A stretch of DNA of 64,000 bases from an uncultured bacterium (GTDB taxonomy: Bacteria; Zhuqueibacterota; QNDG01; DTFT01), in assembly GCA_963736115.1 (NCBI GenBank), contig CAVTNR010000005.1:1-64000 (forward strand). The letters are read 5' to 3'. The position numbers were made by a program, and so were the translations under genes. The notes beneath the pieces were generated by a model. That model searched no databases. It saw only the letters and a program-made list of their open reading frames with translations, and had not been told where the DNA came from. How positions within the stretch are numbered: the stretch's first letter is position 1; each line of letters begins with the position of its first letter. Positions 1,225-60,512 of the stretch are shown one piece after another.

Positions 1225-1292
1225 GGCCTACATGCGCGGTCCGGAACCGGCCGGTGCCGGATCGCAAAAATCCGAGTTCCCGAGGAGAATCA

Positions 1293-2689
1293 ATGGACAT
1301 TCGATTTCACAATGCGGTCAGGGAAGTCACGGGCACCATGCATCTGCTCACAGTGGCGGGCAAACGGATCCTTCTGGATTGCGGTCTCTCCCAGGGCAGA
1401 CGCGCCGAATCGGACCTGAAAAACCGGAATTTTCCATTCGATCCCGCGTCCATCGATGCCGTGATTCTCTCCCACGCCCATATCGACCACAGCGGCAACA
1501 TCCCCCAGCTTGTGAAGCAGGGCTACTTGGGGCCGATCTACAGCACGCATGCGACTCACGACCTGGCCAATATCATGCTCCGCGATTCGGCGCACATACA
1601 GAAAAAAGATACGGAATTTCTCAATAAGCGCGCCCGCAAGGGCGGTCCCCCCCCCTTCCTCCGCTCTACACCATGCAGGACGCTGAGAAATCCCTGCGTC
1701 AGTTCGTGGGCATGGGATACGAACGGACCTTCCTTGTGACGCCCGAGGTCCGCGCGACTTTCTTCGACGCCGGGCACATCCTCGGATCCTCGATCGTGCA
1801 GATCGATGCCAGCGAAAACGGGCGTCCGTCCCGCATCGTTTTCACGGGCGATCTGGGCCGCGCGAAACTGCCTCTGCTCCGGGATCCCGTCCGTCTCGTC
1901 GAAGCGGACGTGTTCATCACGGAATCCACGTACGGAAACAAGATTCACGATGACATTCTGGACATGAAGGAGGAACTGCGGGATGTGGTGAAGCGGACCA
2001 TGGACCGGGGAGGAAAAATCATAGTACCCTCGTTCTCGGTCGGCCGCACTCAGGAAATGGTTTACTTTCTGCATATGCTGATCAATGAAGGCGCGCTTCC
2101 GGAACTGCCGATTTTTGTGGACAGCCCGCTGTCCATCAGCGCCACCGAGGTGTTCCGCATGCACGCGGAGCTCTTCGACGAGGAAACCCAGGAGGCTTTT
2201 CTCGATCGTCATGAGGATCCCTTCGGATTCCGCCGGCTCCGGTACGTCCAGTCCGCTGAGGAATCGAAAACCCTGAACAGCCTCCGCGAACCGTGCGTCA
2301 TTATTTCGGCTGCCGGCATGTGCGAAACAGGCCGCATTCTCCATCATCTTGCCAACAATGTGTCCGACCCGAAGAACACCGTGCTCGTCGTCAGTTTCAT
2401 GGCCGCCAACACGCTCGGCCGCCGCATCGTGGAACGTCAGCCCGTTCTGAAAATACTCGGGGAAGCATACCCGTTGCGCGCCGAAGTGGCCATTCTGAAC
2501 GGATTCAGCGCGCACGCGGACCGGAACGCGCTTCTGGAATACGCCGGCGGACTGAACCGGGCCCGGCTCAGACAGGTGTTCGTCGTGCACGGCGAAACAC
2601 CGCAGTCCGAAGCCCTTGTCTCAGGTCTGCAGGACCAGGGGATCAAGGACGTCCTGATTCCTGAGGAAGGGAAGGCGTATACGCTCTGA
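1293..2689 (+). CDS. MBL-fold metallo-hydrolase, beta-CASP/RNA-processing type; frameshift in C9 tract at 1647-1655
   Basis: LSHAHIDHSG motif, AGHILGS, ESTYG and FSAHAD. ORFs 1254-1739 and 1673-2689 join if one C is added (GGPPPLPPLYTMQD). RBS GAGGAG before ATG 1293. Confidence 0.88.
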
Positions 2690-43541: not shown

Positions 43542-45308
43542 TCAGTTCTTTCCATTTGCATGCAATGCCGCCCGCCGCAGTTCCTCTTTTGCCTCTTCCA
43601 GCGTGAGCACGTCTGTCCGAATCGGAATGCCCCGGCTCTTGAATGACTCCATTGCGGCAGAAGCCGAAAGTGTGCCGAGACCGACCCGTTCCGGCTGATC
43701 GGAAAAAAAGAAGGGCCTCACGGGCCCGTCGTATCGCACGCGTCCCTTTTCAAGCAGAATCACCCTTTCCGCGAGACGGGCCACCAGATCCATGTCATGC
43801 GAGATGAACAGAACGGAACGGCCGGAACCGTGAAACCCTGACAGTATGGATTCCACGCGGATGGACGACTCCCAGTCCAGACCGGCCGTGGGTTCGTCGA
43901 GAACGATCCACTCGGGCTCCATGGCGAACACGCCGGCCAGCGCCGCCCGGCGCTTCTCCCCGCCGCTGAGGTGAAATGGCGAGCGGTTCCGGTACGCGTT
44001 GAAAGACAGACCCACACGCTCCATGGCCTCGGCCACAGCCGACTCCAGACGACTGCCGGAGAGGCCGAGGTTTTTCGGACCGAAGGCCACATCCGCGAAT
44101 ACAGTCTCTTCGAAAAGCTGCGTCTCCGGCAGTTGAAAGACCAGCCCGATCCTGCGCCGCACCTCGTTCAGGTCAGTCCGTCTGTCCGACAGGTTCAGGC
44201 CGTCCAGCAGGACCGCGCCGGACGACGGTCGGAGGAGGCCGTTCAGGTGCTGAATGAGCGTGGTTTTCCCGGATCCGGACGGTCCCACGAGTGCGACGGA
44301 TTCGCCCGATCCGAAGACCGCGGACACATCGTCCAGCGCGTTTCGGGTTTCGATAAACGGGGATCGGTAGGAATAGGAAAGATTTTCAAGTCGGACGTTG
44401 AACAATCTCGCCGCTAGCGGCGGGGGATCACAAGGGATTCGGATGATGGACGCCGCGAGGGAATGTGAACTCGACTCGTCGAGGCCGCCAGAAGCCCCCG
44501 TTTGTGAATCATTATTTTGGGATGGATAAGGACCGGGCTTCTGGCGACCCGATTCAGAGCGAAGACCCTCCCAGAAAACCTCGAGGCTGACCGATGCGGG
44601 AACGCCGACCGCGGCTGCCCGGCACAACCCGGCGTCCCGGAATCCGGTTTCGGCCGGGCCGTCGAATACGAGCGCCCCTTCACGGAGCAGGAGGAGACGG
44701 CCGCAGAAAAGGGCCTCGTCCGGATACTGGGTGACGATGAGGAATCCCGCTTCCGGCCGCTCCGTCACGAAACGCCGGATTTCCGCGCGGCCTTCAGGGT
44801 CGAGAAGCGATGTGGGTTCGTCCAGCACGTAATACGCGGGTTCCATGACCCAGACCGAGGCCAGCGCGAGCCGCTGGCGTTCGCCGCCGGAGAGCAGATG
44901 CGGGGGATGCGTCCGGACCGGATCGAGCCGGAACCGCCGGAGCGCCTCTTCCACGCGACGGACGATGTCCTCCGTATGGATGCCGAGGTTCTCGGGGCCG
45001 AATGCGATTTCCCGCTCGACCGTGGTCGAGACGATCTGGTCGTCCGGGTTCTGGAAAACCAGGCCGATGCGCCTGCGCAGAGGCATCAGGTCCCCGGGCC
45101 GAAGCACGGAAAAACCGTCGACGCGGACGTCCCCGGCGGACGGATGGAGCAGGCCGTCGATGCACCGAACCAGGGTCGTCTTGCCGGATCCGTTCGATCC
45201 CATGAGCGCGATCCGCTCGCCCGGCGAGATCCGGAACGAAACACCCCGGAGCGCGGGTGTGGATTCGGCTCCGGGGTAGACGGCCTGCAGACCCGCAACT
45301 TCAAGCAC
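43542..45308 (-). CDS. Fused ECF transporter ATPase (EcfA-EcfA')
   Basis: Two Walker A motifs (GSNGSGKT, GPSGSGKT), two LSGGE, FQNPDDQ/FQLPETQ; GTG start overlaps the waaA 3' end. Confidence 0.9.
   Translation of the reverse strand: MLEVAGLQAVYPGAESTPALRGVSFRISPGERIALMGSNGSGKTTLVRCIDGLLHPSAGDVRVDGFSVLRPGDLMPLRRRIGLVFQNPDDQIVSTTVEREIAFGPENLGIHTEDIVRRVEEALRRFRLDPVRTHPPHLLSGGERQRLALASVWVMEPAYYVLDEPTSLLDPEGRAEIRRFVTERPEAGFLIVTQYPDEALFCGRLLLLREGALVFDGPAETGFRDAGLCRAAAVGVPASVSLEVFWEGLRSESGRQKPGPYPSQNNDSQTGASGGLDESSSHSLAASIIRIPCDPPPLAARLFNVRLENLSYSYRSPFIETRNALDDVSAVFGSGESVALVGPSGSGKTTLIQHLNGLLRPSSGAVLLDGLNLSDRRTDLNEVRRRIGLVFQLPETQLFEETVFADVAFGPKNLGLSGSRLESAVAEAMERVGLSFNAYRNRSPFHLSGGEKRRAALAGVFAMEPEWIVLDEPTAGLDWESSIRVESILSGFHGSGRSVLFISHDMDLVARLAERVILLEKGRVRYDGPVRPFFFSDQPERVGLGTLSASAAMESFKSRGIPIRTDVLTLEEAKEELRRAALHANGKN
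44398..44557. mobile_element. Decayed palindromic element forming the linker of the fused ECF ATPase
   Basis: TTGAACAATCTCGCCGCTAGCGGCGGGGGATC...GCCGCGAGGGAATG resembles the 57311-57426 element; internal inverted repeat GCCGCCAGAAGCCC/GGGCTTCTGGCGAC. Confidence 0.55.
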
Positions 45309-46602
45309 GCGGTTTGACCCGTTCTTCCAGTCGACGCACGATGCGGTCCGTGGCGCCGACATTCTCTCGCACCAGGGCCAGCGCGGACGCGCCCGCCTTC
45401 TTGAGAATACCGGGGTCGTCGATCATGGGCCGGAGGACGCGGAGAAAGGAATCCGCGTCCCGGACGAGGAATCCGCCGCCGCGCGATTCGAGCTGACCGG
45501 CCTCGTGGGAATTCCTGCACCGGGGTCCGAAAAAAACCGGGATTCCGAAAGCCGCGGGCTCGAGCACGCTGTGCACCCCGGGCCCGAATCCGCCGCCGAC
45601 AAAGGCGGCGTCCGCCAGGGCGTAGAGGCCCGCGAGAATGCCGATGCGGTCCACCAGGAGCACGTCGAAAGCGCCGCCGGACGCGGCCTGAAGACCCGAA
45701 AGCCGGACACAGCGGAGTCCCGCGCCGGCGCACTGGGATTCAACATTTTCCAGGTGCTCCGCGGTGGGCTCATGCGGCACCCACACCGACCAGACCCTGC
45801 GTTTTTCCGCGGCAAGCGCCTTGAGCACCGGCTCGATCACGGCCTCGTCCGTGGGCCAGGTGCTGCCGAACACGATTCCGAAACGCTCCTGCTTCAGCGG
45901 CCGTAGAGGTCCGGCCACGGCATCGGCATTCTCCGTCCGACGCACGACCTGGTCATAGCGCGTGTCCCCCGCCACCTCGGGCTGGACCGACGCCAGTCGG
46001 AATTTCCCGCTCACATCCGCGGTCTGTTCCGAAACCGCGAGCACATGGTCAAAGGGCCGGACGCACATGCGGAGCGTGCCCCGGGTCCAGAACCGGCGGT
46101 ACGCCGCCTCGGAACGGAGCGAGAAGTTGATCAGAAACGCGGGAATGCCCCGCCGCTTGAGCTCGGCGGTGTGGTTCGGCCATATGTCGTGACGCACCAC
46201 GATTCCGGCATCCGGCCTGATAATGGAGAGGAAACGGCCGGCGTTCCGCCTGGAGTCAAAGGGGATATAGGTCAGGAGATCGGCGCCGGGAAAAGACCGG
46301 ACATTCTCGTACCCGGAGGGAGAGAAGAAACTGACCGCGATGAAGGCGGCCGGAAACCGGGCTCGCAGTCCGGCGATGACGGGTTTGGCCTGCTCGAACT
46401 CGCCCATGGAACTGGTGTGTATCCAGAAACGGGGGGAACGGCCGGAAAATCCGGCGGTTTCCGATTCGAGGCGGCTGAAAAGCCCCCTGCGGCCTTTCAA
46501 TCCGCGTCGGATCTTGGGATTGACCAGCGCACCCAGGAACAGCGCGAACCGGAGCATCGGCAGTACTGCCGCGTTGTATACCGCGAAATAGAAGGAATCC
46601 AT
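45301..46602 (-). CDS. waaA: 3-deoxy-D-manno-octulosonic acid (Kdo) transferase
   Basis: WIHTSSMGEFEQ, YIPFD, GDTRYD, GSTW, VPHE, AFVGGGF, HSVLEPAAFG. Confidence 0.93.
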   Translation of the reverse strand: MDSFYFAVYNAAVLPMLRFALFLGALVNPKIRRGLKGRRGLFSRLESETAGFSGRSPRFWIHTSSMGEFEQAKPVIAGLRARFPAAFIAVSFFSPSGYENVRSFPGADLLTYIPFDSRRNAGRFLSIIRPDAGIVVRHDIWPNHTAELKRRGIPAFLINFSLRSEAAYRRFWTRGTLRMCVRPFDHVLAVSEQTADVSGKFRLASVQPEVAGDTRYDQVVRRTENADAVAGPLRPLKQERFGIVFGSTWPTDEAVIEPVLKALAAEKRRVWSVWVPHEPTAEHLENVESQCAGAGLRCVRLSGLQAASGGAFDVLLVDRIGILAGLYALADAAFVGGGFGPGVHSVLEPAAFGIPVFFGPRCRNSHEAGQLESRGGGFLVRDADSFLRVLRPMIDDPGILKKAGASALALVRENVGATDRIVRRLEERVKPRA

Positions 46603-56673: not shown

Positions 56674-58221
56674 CTAGAACATATATGTCCGTATCGAATG
56701 CGCCGGGCTCTCGGTTCTGACCGACCTCTCCCCCAGCCGCACCGCATAGGAAACGGGTGTGTCCGTACGGTTCAGGACCACAAGCGCCAGGGAACCGTCC
56801 GGGTTCCGGAACGCCGTAGTCTCCAGTTCGTCCACGGAAGCGGCGGATGCGATGCGCACCGCGCCCGGTTTGATGAACCTGGAGAAATGGCCGATATAAT
56901 AATAAGAGTTCATAAAATGCAGGCCGTCCGTTCGCGTGTCCGCATGCACGGGCGCGAAGCAGAAATTGCCCACATGATTGGGTCCGCCTGTTTCATCGAG
57001 CAGGATGTTCCAGTCCACCCAGCCGACGGTCCAGCGGTTCAGATCCGCGAGGATCGATTTGCCGTAGGCCTCGCCCATACTCCAGTCGTCCAGCTTTTTC
57101 GCGTCATACGGCCCGAGGCATCCCTCGGTGAACAGCAGTGCCTTGTCCGGGAACATTTCGTGCGCGAGCCGCACATTGTCGAAATTGTCACTGACGTACC
57201 AGTGGAATCCCATGCCCCATACATACCGGCCGGCGGCCGGATCGGACAGGATGGTGTTCGCCCATTCGGGCAGACGGTTCCGATTGTGGTCGTACCCGAT
57301 CACACGGACGTTGAATCTGTCAGCGAGCGCATTCCCCGCGGCTTGCCGCGGGGCAAGCGAGCGAATATCAGATGTCTCCTCTCTACAGATAGAAGATTCC
57401 CCGCCGCTTGCGGCGGGGAGCTTCAACAGCCCAGCCCGCTCGAGCGCGGGTCCCAGATGGTCGCGGATGAAGTCGCGCTGTTCCCCCGCCGTGAACACGC
57501 AGGAATCCCATGTCTGGGTGGCCTCCGGCTCGTTCTGCGGCGTCAGTCCCCAGATCGGAATCCCTTCCTTCTCGTATTCCCGGATGTATCGGACAAAGTA
57601 CTCCGCCCAGACCCCGCGGCATTCCGGCTTCAGCTTGCCGCCGTTGTTCATCTTGCCATTGGTCTTCATCCAGGCCGGCGGGCTCCAGGGCGAGGCGAAG
57701 AGCTTGAGCGGGCCGCCGGCCGCGCGGAACGCCTCGCGGATCAGGGGAATCAGCGCCTTCCGGTCCCTTTCGATGGAGAATTTCTTCAGCTCGAAATCGC
57801 CGGGCGTTTCGGCGTACGCGTAATTGCCCGTGGAAAAGTCGCAGCTGTTGATGTGCGTGCGGCAGAGTGTGTACGCATTCCCGCGGACGGGATCGAAGTA
57901 GGCCTCGAGCACGGCCGCGCGCTTCGCCGGGCTCAATTTGTAGAAGGTCACAGCCGCGGACTCGGTGAAGGCGCCGCCGAATCCCTCGATGGTCTGATAG
58001 TGCTGCGCCGGCTCAACCCAGACAGAGGTGATACGGTTGTCGAAGAACGCGTCCGCCGGAACGGATTCGAAAGAAAGCGCGGCCTTTTCCGCCAGACGGT
58101 CCGGCGTGTCTTTCGCGGTCTGAAATACACGGAGGCCGCGGGACGCGGGTGTATCCTGGCCCTGGGCCGTTGCCGCGAACCCGATGATCAGCATCATCCA
58201 ACTTCTTTTCCATGCCTGCAT
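56674..58221 (-). CDS. Glycoside hydrolase family 30 (glucosylceramidase-like) carrying a 38-aa insertion
   Basis: GFGGAFTE, SCDFS, ASPWSPPAWMK, QNEP, FHWY, FTEGC, DWNILLD. Confidence 0.93.
   Translation of the reverse strand: MQAWKRSWMMLIIGFAATAQGQDTPASRGLRVFQTAKDTPDRLAEKAALSFESVPADAFFDNRITSVWVEPAQHYQTIEGFGGAFTESAAVTFYKLSPAKRAAVLEAYFDPVRGNAYTLCRTHINSCDFSTGNYAYAETPGDFELKKFSIERDRKALIPLIREAFRAAGGPLKLFASPWSPPAWMKTNGKMNNGGKLKPECRGVWAEYFVRYIREYEKEGIPIWGLTPQNEPEATQTWDSCVFTAGEQRDFIRDHLGPALERAGLLKLPAASGGESSICREETSDIRSLAPRQAAGNALADRFNVRVIGYDHNRNRLPEWANTILSDPAAGRYVWGMGFHWYVSDNFDNVRLAHEMFPDKALLFTEGCLGPYDAKKLDDWSMGEAYGKSILADLNRWTVGWVDWNILLDETGGPNHVGNFCFAPVHADTRTDGLHFMNSYYYIGHFSRFIKPGAVRIASAASVDELETTAFRNPDGSLALVVLNRTDTPVSYAVRLGERSVRTESPAHSIRTYMF
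57311..57426. mobile_element. 116-bp palindromic MITE-like element inserted in frame in the GH30 gene
   Basis: Ends TTGAA...TTCAA; two 20-bp hairpins, CCCCGCGGC-TT-GCCGCGGGG (57334-57353) and CCCCGCCGC-TT-GCGGCGGGG (57399-57418). Confidence 0.8.
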
Positions 58222-58328
58222 ATCCGCCTCCTTTTCAGATGCCCTGAACCGGCCGTTCCGGACCTTCCTTTTTCGCTTGACATTCACGGTAAATTTTAGG
58301 AAATTGATGACAGAAAATAGGAGTGTTC

Positions 58329-58855: not shown

Positions 58856-58969
58856 GTCATTTTCCTTCGGGTGGATGCGCTCGCGGACAGATTCCGGGCC
58901 GGACGCACGGTCTGGCAGCCGGCCGGATGTTTGCTTTTGCCGGACGCCGGACGGCGCACGGCGGCCGGC

Positions 58970-60512
58970 TCAGACCATGGTCGTGAAATCCCGGTCGAGG
59001 CTCCGGTACTGGATGGCCTCGGAGAGGTGCTGTGGTTTTATGGATTCCGAGCCATCGAGGTCCGCGATGGTCCGGGACACTTTCAGGATGCGGTCGTAGG
59101 CGCGGGCCGACAGGCCCAGGCGCGTGATCGCGCGGCCCAGCAGGGCGTCGCTTTCAGGGCCGACGACTCCGTATTTCCGGATGTCCCTCGGCGTCATGTG
59201 CGCGTTGCAGTACACACCCGGCCGGCCCTTGAAACGCTCGGTCTGCATGCGCCGCGCGGCCATGACCCGGCGGCGCACGGTTTCGGAGGTCTCGCCCGTG
59301 GCGCGGCCCGCCAGCTCCCGGTAGGGAATGGCCGGCACCTCGACGTGTATGTCGATGCGGTCGAGCAGGGGTCCCGAGATGCGGGCGCGGTACCGCTGAA
59401 CGTCCATGACCGTGCACGCGCAGGAATGCAGGGGGTTTCCGAAATGGCCGCAGGGACAGGGATTCATGGCCGCGACCAGCATGAATACGGCCGGATACGT
59501 GACCGTGAGCGCGGCGCGCGCGATGGTGACGCGGCCGTCCTCCATGGGCTGGCGCAGCACTTCGAGCACGTTCTTGCGGAATTCCGGGAGTTCGTCCAGG
59601 AACAGGACGCCGTGGTGGGCGAGGCTGACTTCCCCGGGCCTGGGCAGGTGGCCGCCGCCGATGAGGCCCGCGTCCGAAATGGTGTGATGCGGCGATCGGA
59701 ACGGCCGCGTGGCGATCGAGCGCGGTGTCCGTCGGCAGAAGGCCCGCGACCGAATGGATCTTCGTGGTTTCGAGCGCCTCCTCGAGCGTCAGGTCCGGCA
59801 GCACGGTCGGGATGCGCTTCGCCAGCATCGTCTTTCCGGAACCCGGGGGTCCGATCATCAGCGCGTTGTGCCCGCCCGCGGCCGCGACTTCAAGACTGCG
59901 CTTGACGTGTTCCTGGCCCTTGACGTCCTGAAAATCCACGCCGTAGGAGGCGACGCGGGCGAAGACGTCCTCCATCGCGACCGTGAAGGGCGGGTCTTTT
60001 CTCACCCCGTCGAGGATTTCCACGGCCTGCCGCAGGGTCTCGACCGGGTGCACGGCCAGCCCCAGCGCCATGGCGGCCTCCTTCGCGTTCTGCTTCGGAA
60101 GCAGAATGGCCGGCACTGCCGCGTCGCGCACCGCGATCGAAATCGGAAGCCCGCCGCGTATGGCCCGGACCTGGCCGTCCAGCGCCAGTTCGCCCAACAC
60201 CACCGTATCCCGCAGTTTTTCCGGGTCGATCTGTCCGCTGGCCGCAAGTATGCCGATAGCCATGGGCAGGTCGTAGGCGGACCCCTCCTTCCGGATGTCT
60301 GCGGGAGCCAGGTTCACCGTGATCCGCTTGTTCGGCAGGTAATACCCGGCGTTCCGTATCGCCGCGCACACCCGCTCCTTGGATTCCTTGACTGCGCTGT
60401 CCGGAAGCCCCACGGTCACGAAAGCGGGTAATCCGCCCTCGAAATGGGTTTCAACCTGGACGATGTAGCCCTCGATGCCCAGCACTGCCGCGCTCAATAC
60501 TTTCGCAAACAT
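58970..60512 (-). CDS. comM: YifB/ComM Mg-chelatase-like AAA+ ATPase; one extra base near 59717
   Basis: [45 protein letters not shown]; removing one base restores [15 protein letters not shown]. Confidence 0.9.

Follow-up and report, generated by a model that had tools for sequence, protein, structure and literature searches.

A hairpin-ended repeat of probable IS200/IS605 type inserted in frame in a GH30 glycoside hydrolase gene of an uncultured Zhuqueibacterota bacterium

In the first 64,000 nucleotides of contig CAVTNR010000005.1 (assembly GCA_963736115.1; this whole stretch is called the window below), from an uncultured bacterium of the Zhuqueibacterota, the gene of a GH30 glycoside hydrolase contains a short DNA unit with two GC-rich hairpins. 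The unit is almost certainly a mobile, non-autonomous repeat that was inserted into the gene. We favor the view that it is a transposase-less copy of an IS200/IS605-type element (PATE) that was moved by a Y1 transposase, pasted 3' of the tetranucleotide TGAA and is now read as a disordered loop of the GH30 enzyme, and we consider this reading likely. It is based on the IS608-like plan of the ends, on the co-variation of guide and cleavage sequences across the repeat family, and on the similar design of a PATE from Haloquadratum.

Results

Insertion of the element in the GH30 gene

The features to which the text refers are as follows.

56674 to 58287, minus strand: host gene, GH30 glycoside hydrolase, 537 aa counted from the first GTG, with Pfam match
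57316 to 57426, plus strand (opposite to the coding strand of the GH30 gene): the inserted element itself, 111 nt, missing from 12 of 12 aligned homologues
57312 to 57315, plus strand: TGAA, putative target and left cleavage tetranucleotide (C_L); host DNA, from the gene's own Phe-Asn codons (minus strand TTC AAC)
57330 to 57333, plus strand: CATT, candidate left guide (G_L), tetranucleotide directly 5' of the foot of hairpin 1; can pair with TGAA by the IS608 scheme
57334 to 57353, plus strand: hairpin 1, left subterminal palindrome CCCCGCGGC-TT-GCCGCGGGG, 20 nt, 9-bp stem, CTTG loop
57375 to 57396, plus strand: central small hairpin in the variable core, from the predicted fold only; its sequence differs among subfamilies
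57395 to 57398, plus strand: GATT, candidate right guide (G_R), the 4 nt 5' of hairpin 2
57399 to 57418, plus strand: hairpin 2, right subterminal palindrome CCCCGCCGC-TT-GCGGCGGGG, 20 nt, oriented like hairpin 1
57423 to 57426, plus strand: TCAA, right end (C_R), last base 8 nt past the 9-bp stem of hairpin 2 and 7 nt past the pair T57398-A57419

The GH30 open reading frame (ORF) matches PF02055 (TIM barrel, 2.9e-80), with the match split into two stretches, and PF17189; the database copy of the protein (P0001) begins 22 residues later than the first GTG. A previous reading of the window, made from the sequence only, had described a 116-bp unit at 57311 to 57426 with two 20-nt hairpins and a repeated AGCGAGCG, lying in frame and stop-free between the QNEP and FTEG motifs of the enzyme. 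All of this is present in the ORF. On the plus strand the unit consists of TTGAA (57311-57315) as its start, an 18-nt arm, hairpin 1, the core, hairpin 2, AGC and TTCAA (57422-57426) as its end, and it lies between QNEP (residues 251-254) and FTEG (residues 386-389). From general knowledge of GH30 and clan GH-A, we take E253 of QNEP to be the acid/base and E388 of FTEG to be the nucleophile.

The protein was aligned with 12 of 120 listed homologues (the 9 best together with P0010, P0014, P0028 and P0033), and the insert is missing from all of them, also from P0002 and P0003, whose identity over the alignment is 93% and 90%. The junction reads ERAGL-FNVRVIGYDHN in P0002 and DRAGL-FGVRVIGYDHN in P0003. 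Because homologues at 93% and 90% identity have no insert, the element is, as judged from these sequences, a recent insertion into the GH30 gene. The alignment gives an addition of 37 codons or 111 nt (57316-57426), which corrects the 38 codons and 114 nt of the sequence-only reading. The added residues 288-324 (LKLPAAS...ALADR) have the sequence LKLPAASGGESSICREETSDIRSLAPRQAAGNALADR. The Phe-Asn codons that come after the insert are native to the gene and read GTTGAA on the plus strand; therefore the apparent left end TTGAA is host sequence and not part of the element. Thus, of the bounds TTGAA and TTCAA given before, both strings exist, the left one as native codons. Due to a shared AA, the position of the junction is ambiguous by 2 nt. 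Compared at the protein level, the site has a native TGAA and a net gain of 111 nt, with a possible AA overlap of 2 nt, so that any duplication amounts to at most 2 nt. The alignment to the GH30 structure 2wnw is broken at the same place (query 90-288 and 329-525 against chain 35-231 and 235-430), with 3 residues in the structure where the window protein has 40.

Anatomy and folding of the element

Hairpins 1 and 2 are identical save for one compensatory G/C swap. They lie on one strand in the same orientation, inside a 23-nt direct repeat (ATTCCCCGCSGCTTGCSGCGGGG at 57331 and 57396, spacing 65 nt) of which each copy forms a 9-10-bp palindrome, and their flanks are distinct. The stem of hairpin 2 is lengthened by the pair T57398-A57419, and hairpin 1 is flanked by the two copies of AGCGAGCG (57322-57329 and 57356-57363), between which an outer stem is possible. 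The termini of the element are 89% complementary over 9 nt. A degenerate hairpin pattern found 2 exact sites on the plus strand of the window, against 0.21 expected from shuffles; with up to 3 mismatches allowed, that strand has 6 matches. None of 200 shuffles folds as well as the unit (z −3.3 as DNA, −3.9 as RNA), and the RNA fold of the element (−63.4 kcal/mol) is a compact three-way structure closed by the element's own ends.

Two further stretches of the window share sequence with the element. The 11-mer CGGACGTTGAA, which precedes the GH30 element, occurs a second time at 44393-44430 in ORF 43542-45362 (minus strand), where it is followed after 4 nt by a related GC hairpin, CTCGCCGC-TA-GCGGCGGGG. 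This ORF encodes two fused EcfA-type ABC ATPases, and the hairpin lies in their linker. We rejected the hairpin at 44396-44430 as a second intragenic insertion, as one orthologue (P0122) is the same there except for one residue, G for R, two others are 15 aa longer, and the nhmmer E-value is only 0.23. Chance, a remnant or a preferred target may account for it. Upstream of a STAS-domain gene, the intergenic stretch 58875-58894 (minus strand) agrees with the left arm at 19 of 20 nt (GAATCTGTCCGCGAGCGCAT); a blastn comparison within the window gives E 0.002, and no hairpin adjoins.

A repeat family in many genomes

A scan of the GTDB representative genomes with the motif TTCCCCGCSGCTTGCSGCGGGG gave at least 118 loci. 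The loci listed are mostly metagenome-assembled genomes (MAGs) labelled delta proteobacterium, Desulfobacterota, Desulfosarcina or Syntrophaceae, with other phyla in the minority. The other loci match the window only from 57311/12 to 57426/28 and have no flanking DNA in common with it. The closest copy among the matches listed (locus L012) is 98.3% identical over 117 nt and lies in another genome and another context. An nhmmer profile built from the window copy had at least 132 matches at E ≤ 1e-4, of which just one lies within the window; at least 61 are near full length, and at least 58 are unique copies with flanks. The proposal of a non-autonomous repeat family is thereby supported. These 58 near-full copies are mostly 112-127 nt long, with variants of up to 208 nt. 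A Desulfosarcina-type subfamily has perfect TTGAACC/GGTTCAA ends. With a strict pattern we also found at least 12 unique one-hairpin forms of 50-52 bp, consisting of the left arm, one hairpin and the right end (L018, L021, L030, L056, L068, L069, L070, L081, L084, L100, L105 and L107), which look like deletions between the two hairpins.

In an alignment of the 46 copies of up to 127 nt, columns 39/49 of hairpin 1 are occupied by the pairs AU (12), CG (12), GC (9) and UA (2), and the matching columns 128/138 of hairpin 2 by GC (30), AU (9) and CG (5). To judge from this alignment, both hairpins are maintained through compensatory changes, i.e. they are under selection.

The 22-nt hairpin also occurs in another one-hairpin setting, TTAAATC..GGGTTNTAA-hairpin-TAGTTCATT, across many phyla: L002 (Xenorhabdus), L006, L014, L019, L031, L037, L040, L042, L063, L065 and others, as well as L074 (Chlorobaculum) and L079 (Thiorhodospira). 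Hairpins of this class often lie beside small genes of toxin-antitoxin or unknown type, and a Pfam search of 73 neighboring ORFs revealed no neighbor gene common to the class. At the contig end of a Gammaproteobacteria MAG, a tandem hairpin array (L045:94-195) has a 40-nt period, with three exact units and identical 18-nt spacers. A plasmid collection gave just 3 weak matches to the element, all of them without annotation.

Co-variation of ends and guides

The two ends of the element are conserved to different degrees. The right end TTCAA is kept in 57-58 of 58 copies. On the left, where the anchor pattern required NGAA, 56 copies were anchored, 48 of them with TGAA, and the two copies outside the anchor set read TCAA. 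The base preceding TGAA is T in just 31 of 56 copies.

The terminal tetranucleotides co-vary with the 4 nt ahead of the hairpins. TGAA is combined with CATT in 32 of 58 copies and with any C-initial guide in 40 of 58, while both copies with a left TCAA have G-initial guides. At the right end, TCAA is combined with GATT in 40 of 58 copies, and the single TTAA-ended copy has AATT. From base contacts and the four sequences of IS608 we derived a pairing scheme in which guide base 1 pairs with site base 2, guide base 2 with site base 1 and guide base 4 with site base 4. Both ends of the element fit this scheme, CATT with TGAA and GATT with TCAA. Where the two sites differ, G in TGAA and C in TCAA, the guides differ correspondingly, C in CATT and G in GATT. 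The resemblance to IS200/IS605 hairpins proposed in the sequence-only reading thus gains support from the spacing, the direct orientation, the host-derived left tetranucleotide and the co-variation of guides and cleavage sites.

Position of the copies and peptides in other proteins

Most family copies are intergenic. The copy in L012 lies between the stop codon of an aminotransferase gene and the start of a flavodoxin-like gene, and copies are found in either orientation relative to host genes. In L043 (JACRLF010000081.1, 1234-9469) four copies occupy spacers of a ribosomal-protein/SecY operon; highly expressed transcripts therefore tolerate the element. Stop-free frames of at least 60 codons on both sides are present in 7 of the 57 copies outside the window, and just 2 of these 57 have a Pfam-backed host ORF that runs through the element; the idea of a family that specially colonises coding sequence is therefore not supported. 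The two are a MotB-like protein (L075) with a sense-frame copy at 162-202, in the linker between plug (71-97) and OmpA domain (238-337), and an 820-aa TPR protein (L059) with the element at 229-280. In L053 the element lies upstream of the gene, and the other four of the seven open-frame copies have no Pfam match.

Searching residues 286-327 against a set of 5.8 billion proteins, we found the same peptide, at 66-88% identity, in five other proteins of 295-940 aa. One of them is ComEC, where the peptide stands within the metallo-beta-lactamase domain. Another, an AraC-like protein (P0243), has its helix-turn-helix split by the peptide, with HTH_18 ending at 353 and HTH_AraC resuming at 390; going by the consensus of this motif, the Phe after the insert presumably stands where that helix-turn-helix normally has one, which would make this a second native TGAA. 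A Lnt-like protein has the peptide between its N-terminal and CN-hydrolase domains, and the remaining two have it at the N terminus, where the start calls may be over-extended. After the peptide, all five proteins as well as the window protein, L059, L066 and L111 have Phe and then an amino acid with an A-initial codon option, as TTCA, the complement of TGAA, would give. In a second search, the 38-aa peptide had 20 matches at E ≤ 0.001 among 1.84 billion cluster representatives. Of these, 18 are at most 229 aa long (14 of them below 110 aa), and we rejected this number as a count of intragenic copies because short matches are taken as ORF calls over non-coding copies.

The window copy has one open antisense phase and two open sense phases. 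The single open antisense phase explains why the antisense insertions have one peptide in common. This phase is stop-free in 31 of 58 copies compared with about 20% of shuffles, which is suggestive but no proof of selection, and hints at a sequence that may be shaped to be harmless when translated.

Effect on the GH30 enzyme

An AlphaFold2 model of the GH30 protein, built on a 13-row alignment, has a mean predicted local distance difference test score (pLDDT) of 77.7 and a predicted template modeling score of 0.79. Residues 293-322 have a pLDDT below 50 and lie between the helix 267-284 and the strand 328-333, that is, in the alpha4-beta5 connection. In (beta/alpha)8 barrels the alpha-to-beta connections are on the face opposite the catalytic C-terminal strand ends. 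In the model the insert is thus probably a 37-residue disordered loop of the alpha4-beta5 connection on the non-catalytic face of the barrel, and it is plausible that such a loop would be tolerated; the enzyme may have retained its activity.

Two other genes of the window are frameshifted. A ComM/Mg-chelatase-like gene (58970-60512, minus strand) is present as two overlapping ORFs, and so is a beta-CASP metallo-beta-lactamase gene (1254-2689, plus strand), which is shifted at a C/G run. These frameshifts could be assembly errors or signs of gene decay, i.e. pseudogenes.

Search for a transposase

The gene for a TnpA or RAYT (REP-associated tyrosine transposase; REP, repetitive extragenic palindromic sequence) with the same ends, expected by the sequence-only reading, was not found in the window or in the flanks of the loci. 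Pfam searches revealed no transposase among the 265 ORFs of the window (129 of at least 140 aa and 136 of 85-139 aa), nor among the 266 ORFs within 1.2 kb of copies and 7 read-through frames. When 2,360 locus ORFs were clustered all against all, the only recurrent neighbors were housekeeping families, without a transposase, and no coding candidate was found between pairs of left and right ends 150-4000 nt apart.

Searches of 7,455 stop-free frames with phmmer and hmmsearch, seeded with the E. coli RayT, found only two Y1 genes. One, at L012:13421-14230 (minus strand), is RAYT-like (Pfam Y1_Tnp 4e-6; phmmer against E. coli RayT 1.7e-7), and the 98% copy of the element is 3.3 kb away. We rejected it as a partner because it is flanked by doublets of a different palindrome, GACCCCGGGGTC, and not by family hairpins. 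The other, at L063:2940-3980, is a Y1_Tnp and DnaA_C fusion gene within L063:2910-4014, bounded by 30-nt inverted repeats (90% complementary), 1.7 kb from a hairpin of the one-hairpin class. It was rejected as well, being a different element without family hairpins.

Discussion

We propose that the GH30 copy was formed by a Y1 (HUH) tyrosine transposase encoded elsewhere, which would bind the top strand (the plus strand of the window) in single-stranded form at its two hairpins of like orientation and cut on the left after TGAA and on the right after TCAA. The cut sites would be recognised through pairing with the 4 nt ahead of each hairpin, CATT and GATT. The 111-nt strand would then be pasted 3' of TGAA within the Phe-Asn codons of the GH30 gene with no target duplication. 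As 111 is a multiple of 3 and the phase is open, the gene would remain open and a 37-residue loop would be added by read-through. We infer the class of the enzyme and the single-stranded route from the ends of the element, and for translation we regard read-through as the simplest possibility.

The plan of the ends can be compared with that of IS608. In the sections cited, IS608 inserts 3' of TTAC and leaves this site outside the element, on the 5' side of the left palindrome at a distance of 19 nt. Its C_R, TCAA, belongs to the element and is found 10 nt past the right palindrome on the 3' side. Its 4-nt guides AAAG and GAAT, the latter being G_R, directly precede the palindromes and read the two sites, and its excision reseals the donor without gain or loss. 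The target of the related ISDra2 is given there as TTGAT (PMC3201880, PMC5934647). The GH30 element follows this plan in several respects: its C_L TGAA lies outside, 18 nt 5' of hairpin 1 (19 in IS608), its C_R is TCAA as well and lies inside, a few nt 3' of the right hairpin, and, as in IS608 and ISDra2, 4-nt guides 5' of the hairpins are complementary to the cleavage sites and insertion would be 3' of the target. It differs in the distance of C_R from the hairpin, 7-8 nt compared with 10 nt in IS608, in the target, TGAA compared with TTAC or TTGAT, and in the lack of tnpA and tnpB; compared with these two systems, the element is known from sequence alone.

Several observations weigh against our reading. 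The third guide base is T in the element, in contrast to the A of IS608 that inserts into the protein. The co-variation of guide and cleavage sequences has at least 12 exceptions over the 58 copies. At the right end these are TCAA/CATT (6), TCAA/CCCT (2) and single other guides; at the left end there is one TGAA/GCTT and one TGAA/TATT copy. Seven left ends were unparsed. Since the empty site of the GH30 gene is deduced from protein alignments only, a 2-bp (AA) duplication is possible, and TTGAA and TTCAA can be read as a short terminal inverted repeat too. No Y1 transposase flanked by family hairpins was found in the window and the locus flanks, and both Y1 genes that were found are flanked by other repeats. 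Finally, because the window holds frameshifted genes, the GH30 gene itself could be a young pseudogene.

Two other explanations also involve transposition. The element might be a doublet of the REP or BIME (bacterial interspersed mosaic element) type, similar to REPINs (REP doublets forming hairpins) and kept by a single-copy domesticated RAYT rather than derived from an IS200/IS605 insertion sequence. The chemistry, Y1 HUH on single-stranded hairpins, would be the same, and partner and population dynamics would differ. The abundance of the family in many lineages, its mostly intergenic copies, its one-hairpin forms and the RAYT-like gene near the L012 copy are in favor of this, and a single-copy partner gene would leave no linked transposase near copies. 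Like REPs and BIMEs, the family consists of short GC-rich palindromes that are abundant, mostly extragenic and presumed substrates of a Y1 HUH enzyme acting in trans. However, the L012 RAYT is flanked by GACCCCGGGGTC, and no RAYT with family hairpins was found in the locus flanks searched. REPINs, in the part of the work cited, are two REPs in inverted orientation (PMC3337134), whereas the element has directly repeated hairpins, which do not form a single long inverted hairpin, and its two ends are distinct from each other as in IS608, with C_L beyond the element and C_R within it. We therefore regard a RAYT-kept doublet as unlikely, although it is the alternative to which we give most weight. 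A classical MITE (a miniature transposable element with inverted repeats) moved by a DDE transposase, with TTGAA/TTCAA as short terminal inverted repeats and the junction AA as a 2-bp target duplication, would account for the reverse-complementary termini (9 nt, 89%), the perfect ends of the Desulfosarcina-type subfamily and the 2-nt ambiguity at the junction. Against such a MITE, conservation is asymmetric (right TTCAA in 57-58 of 58 copies, T before TGAA in 31 of 56), and at the one site that can be reconstructed TGAA is host sequence. Moreover, a DDE mechanism does not predict that internal guides co-vary with terminal tetranucleotides, and no DDE transposase recurs near the copies. We consider this explanation improbable.

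Two more explanations concern the fate or the reality of the insert. The sequence-only reading had left open whether the element is translated or removed at the RNA level. Removal as an intron-like or processed intervening sequence, so that the enzyme is made without the loop, would be in line with the compact RNA fold closed by the element's own ends. The element has no Rfam match at gathering thresholds (the best match at the element in an E-value scan is 0.45, and an Rfam 15 scan of the window at the gathering score gave only tRNAs), and its 111 nt contain neither a ribozyme core nor intron features. Copies lie in both orientations relative to host genes, and gene callers read the same peptide inside proteins in other data sets. 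We know of no bacterial mechanism for the exact removal and ligation of such a hairpin cassette. Thus, of these two fates, translation is the simpler and RNA removal very improbable. That the insert is no mobile DNA at all but a native, lineage-specific GH30 loop or an assembly artefact is hardly credible. The frameshifted genes do suggest assembly errors in the window, but the same 116 nt are found in unrelated contexts in dozens of genomes, the closest homologues lack exactly the insert, and a misassembly would not keep both halves of the gene in frame.

Among transposase-less elements, our preferred reading of an IS200/IS605-type origin finds its nearest parallel in the PATE HqIRS46 of Haloquadratum walsbyi, whose two palindromes form a 22-bp direct repeat and which has a 52-bp form with the core deleted, according to the sections cited (PMC3119063). 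Both HqIRS46 and the element are too short for a transposase, have palindromes near their ends as direct repeats (22 bp and 23 nt), lack a proven target duplication and have a terminal-only form (about 52 bp in HqIRS46, 50-52 bp in our family). In contrast to the haloarchaeal HqIRS46, with which it has no sequence relationship, the family comes from bacteria (Desulfobacterota MAGs for the most part). We identified no IS605-type parent element that shares its ends, and some of its copies are read through as protein. In-frame MITEs are known as well, namely Rickettsia palindromic elements (RPEs), ERIC, BOX and QMITE1 (PMC10969869, in the part cited). Like these, the family consists of palindromic repeats, about 100-150 bp in length, that can stand in frame within unrelated protein genes and add a peptide with the ORF intact. 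It differs from RPEs in that in-frame copies are a small minority and most are intergenic, in its IS200/IS605-type ends and in its hosts, free-living anaerobes compared with Rickettsia. The likeness to RPEs is functional only. By analogy, the element may be called a PATE in mechanism and a Rickettsia palindromic element in effect. As in-frame MITEs and PATEs are already known, the finding is no new principle. The family itself is apparently undescribed so far: no description was found in the literature, where four hairpin strings were without a match (PDF supplements of Geobacter genome papers were not covered), and the cited sections of the MITE review PMC10969869 do not mention Desulfo- taxa.

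In conclusion, the family, which is common in MAGs of the sulfate-reducer type (Desulfobacterota), would add a large bacterial group to the hairpin-ended, transposase-less PATEs that the cited sections describe for haloarchaea (PMC3119063). Since its ends obey the guide and cleavage rule of IS608, the target TGAA and the partner enzyme are predictable and testable. The examples are useful for annotation, as genes that carry the element look "split" to domain models. As a more speculative possibility, which we think rather doubtful, the family could be a widespread and still active orphan Y1/HUH element whose transposase is unlinked and unrecognised, and whose insertions serve as reversible switches and as new surface loops. 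If this is true, in-frame insertions would be reversible because IS200/IS605-type excision reseals the donor exactly, and those in GH30, ComEC, MotB, AraC and Lnt would switch their genes on and off or modulate them seamlessly. Apart from this possibility, the copies in a TIM-barrel enzyme, a DNA-binding helix-turn-helix and membrane proteins would be clean natural examples of a mobile element read as protein, and they have a bearing on the origin of new protein loops.

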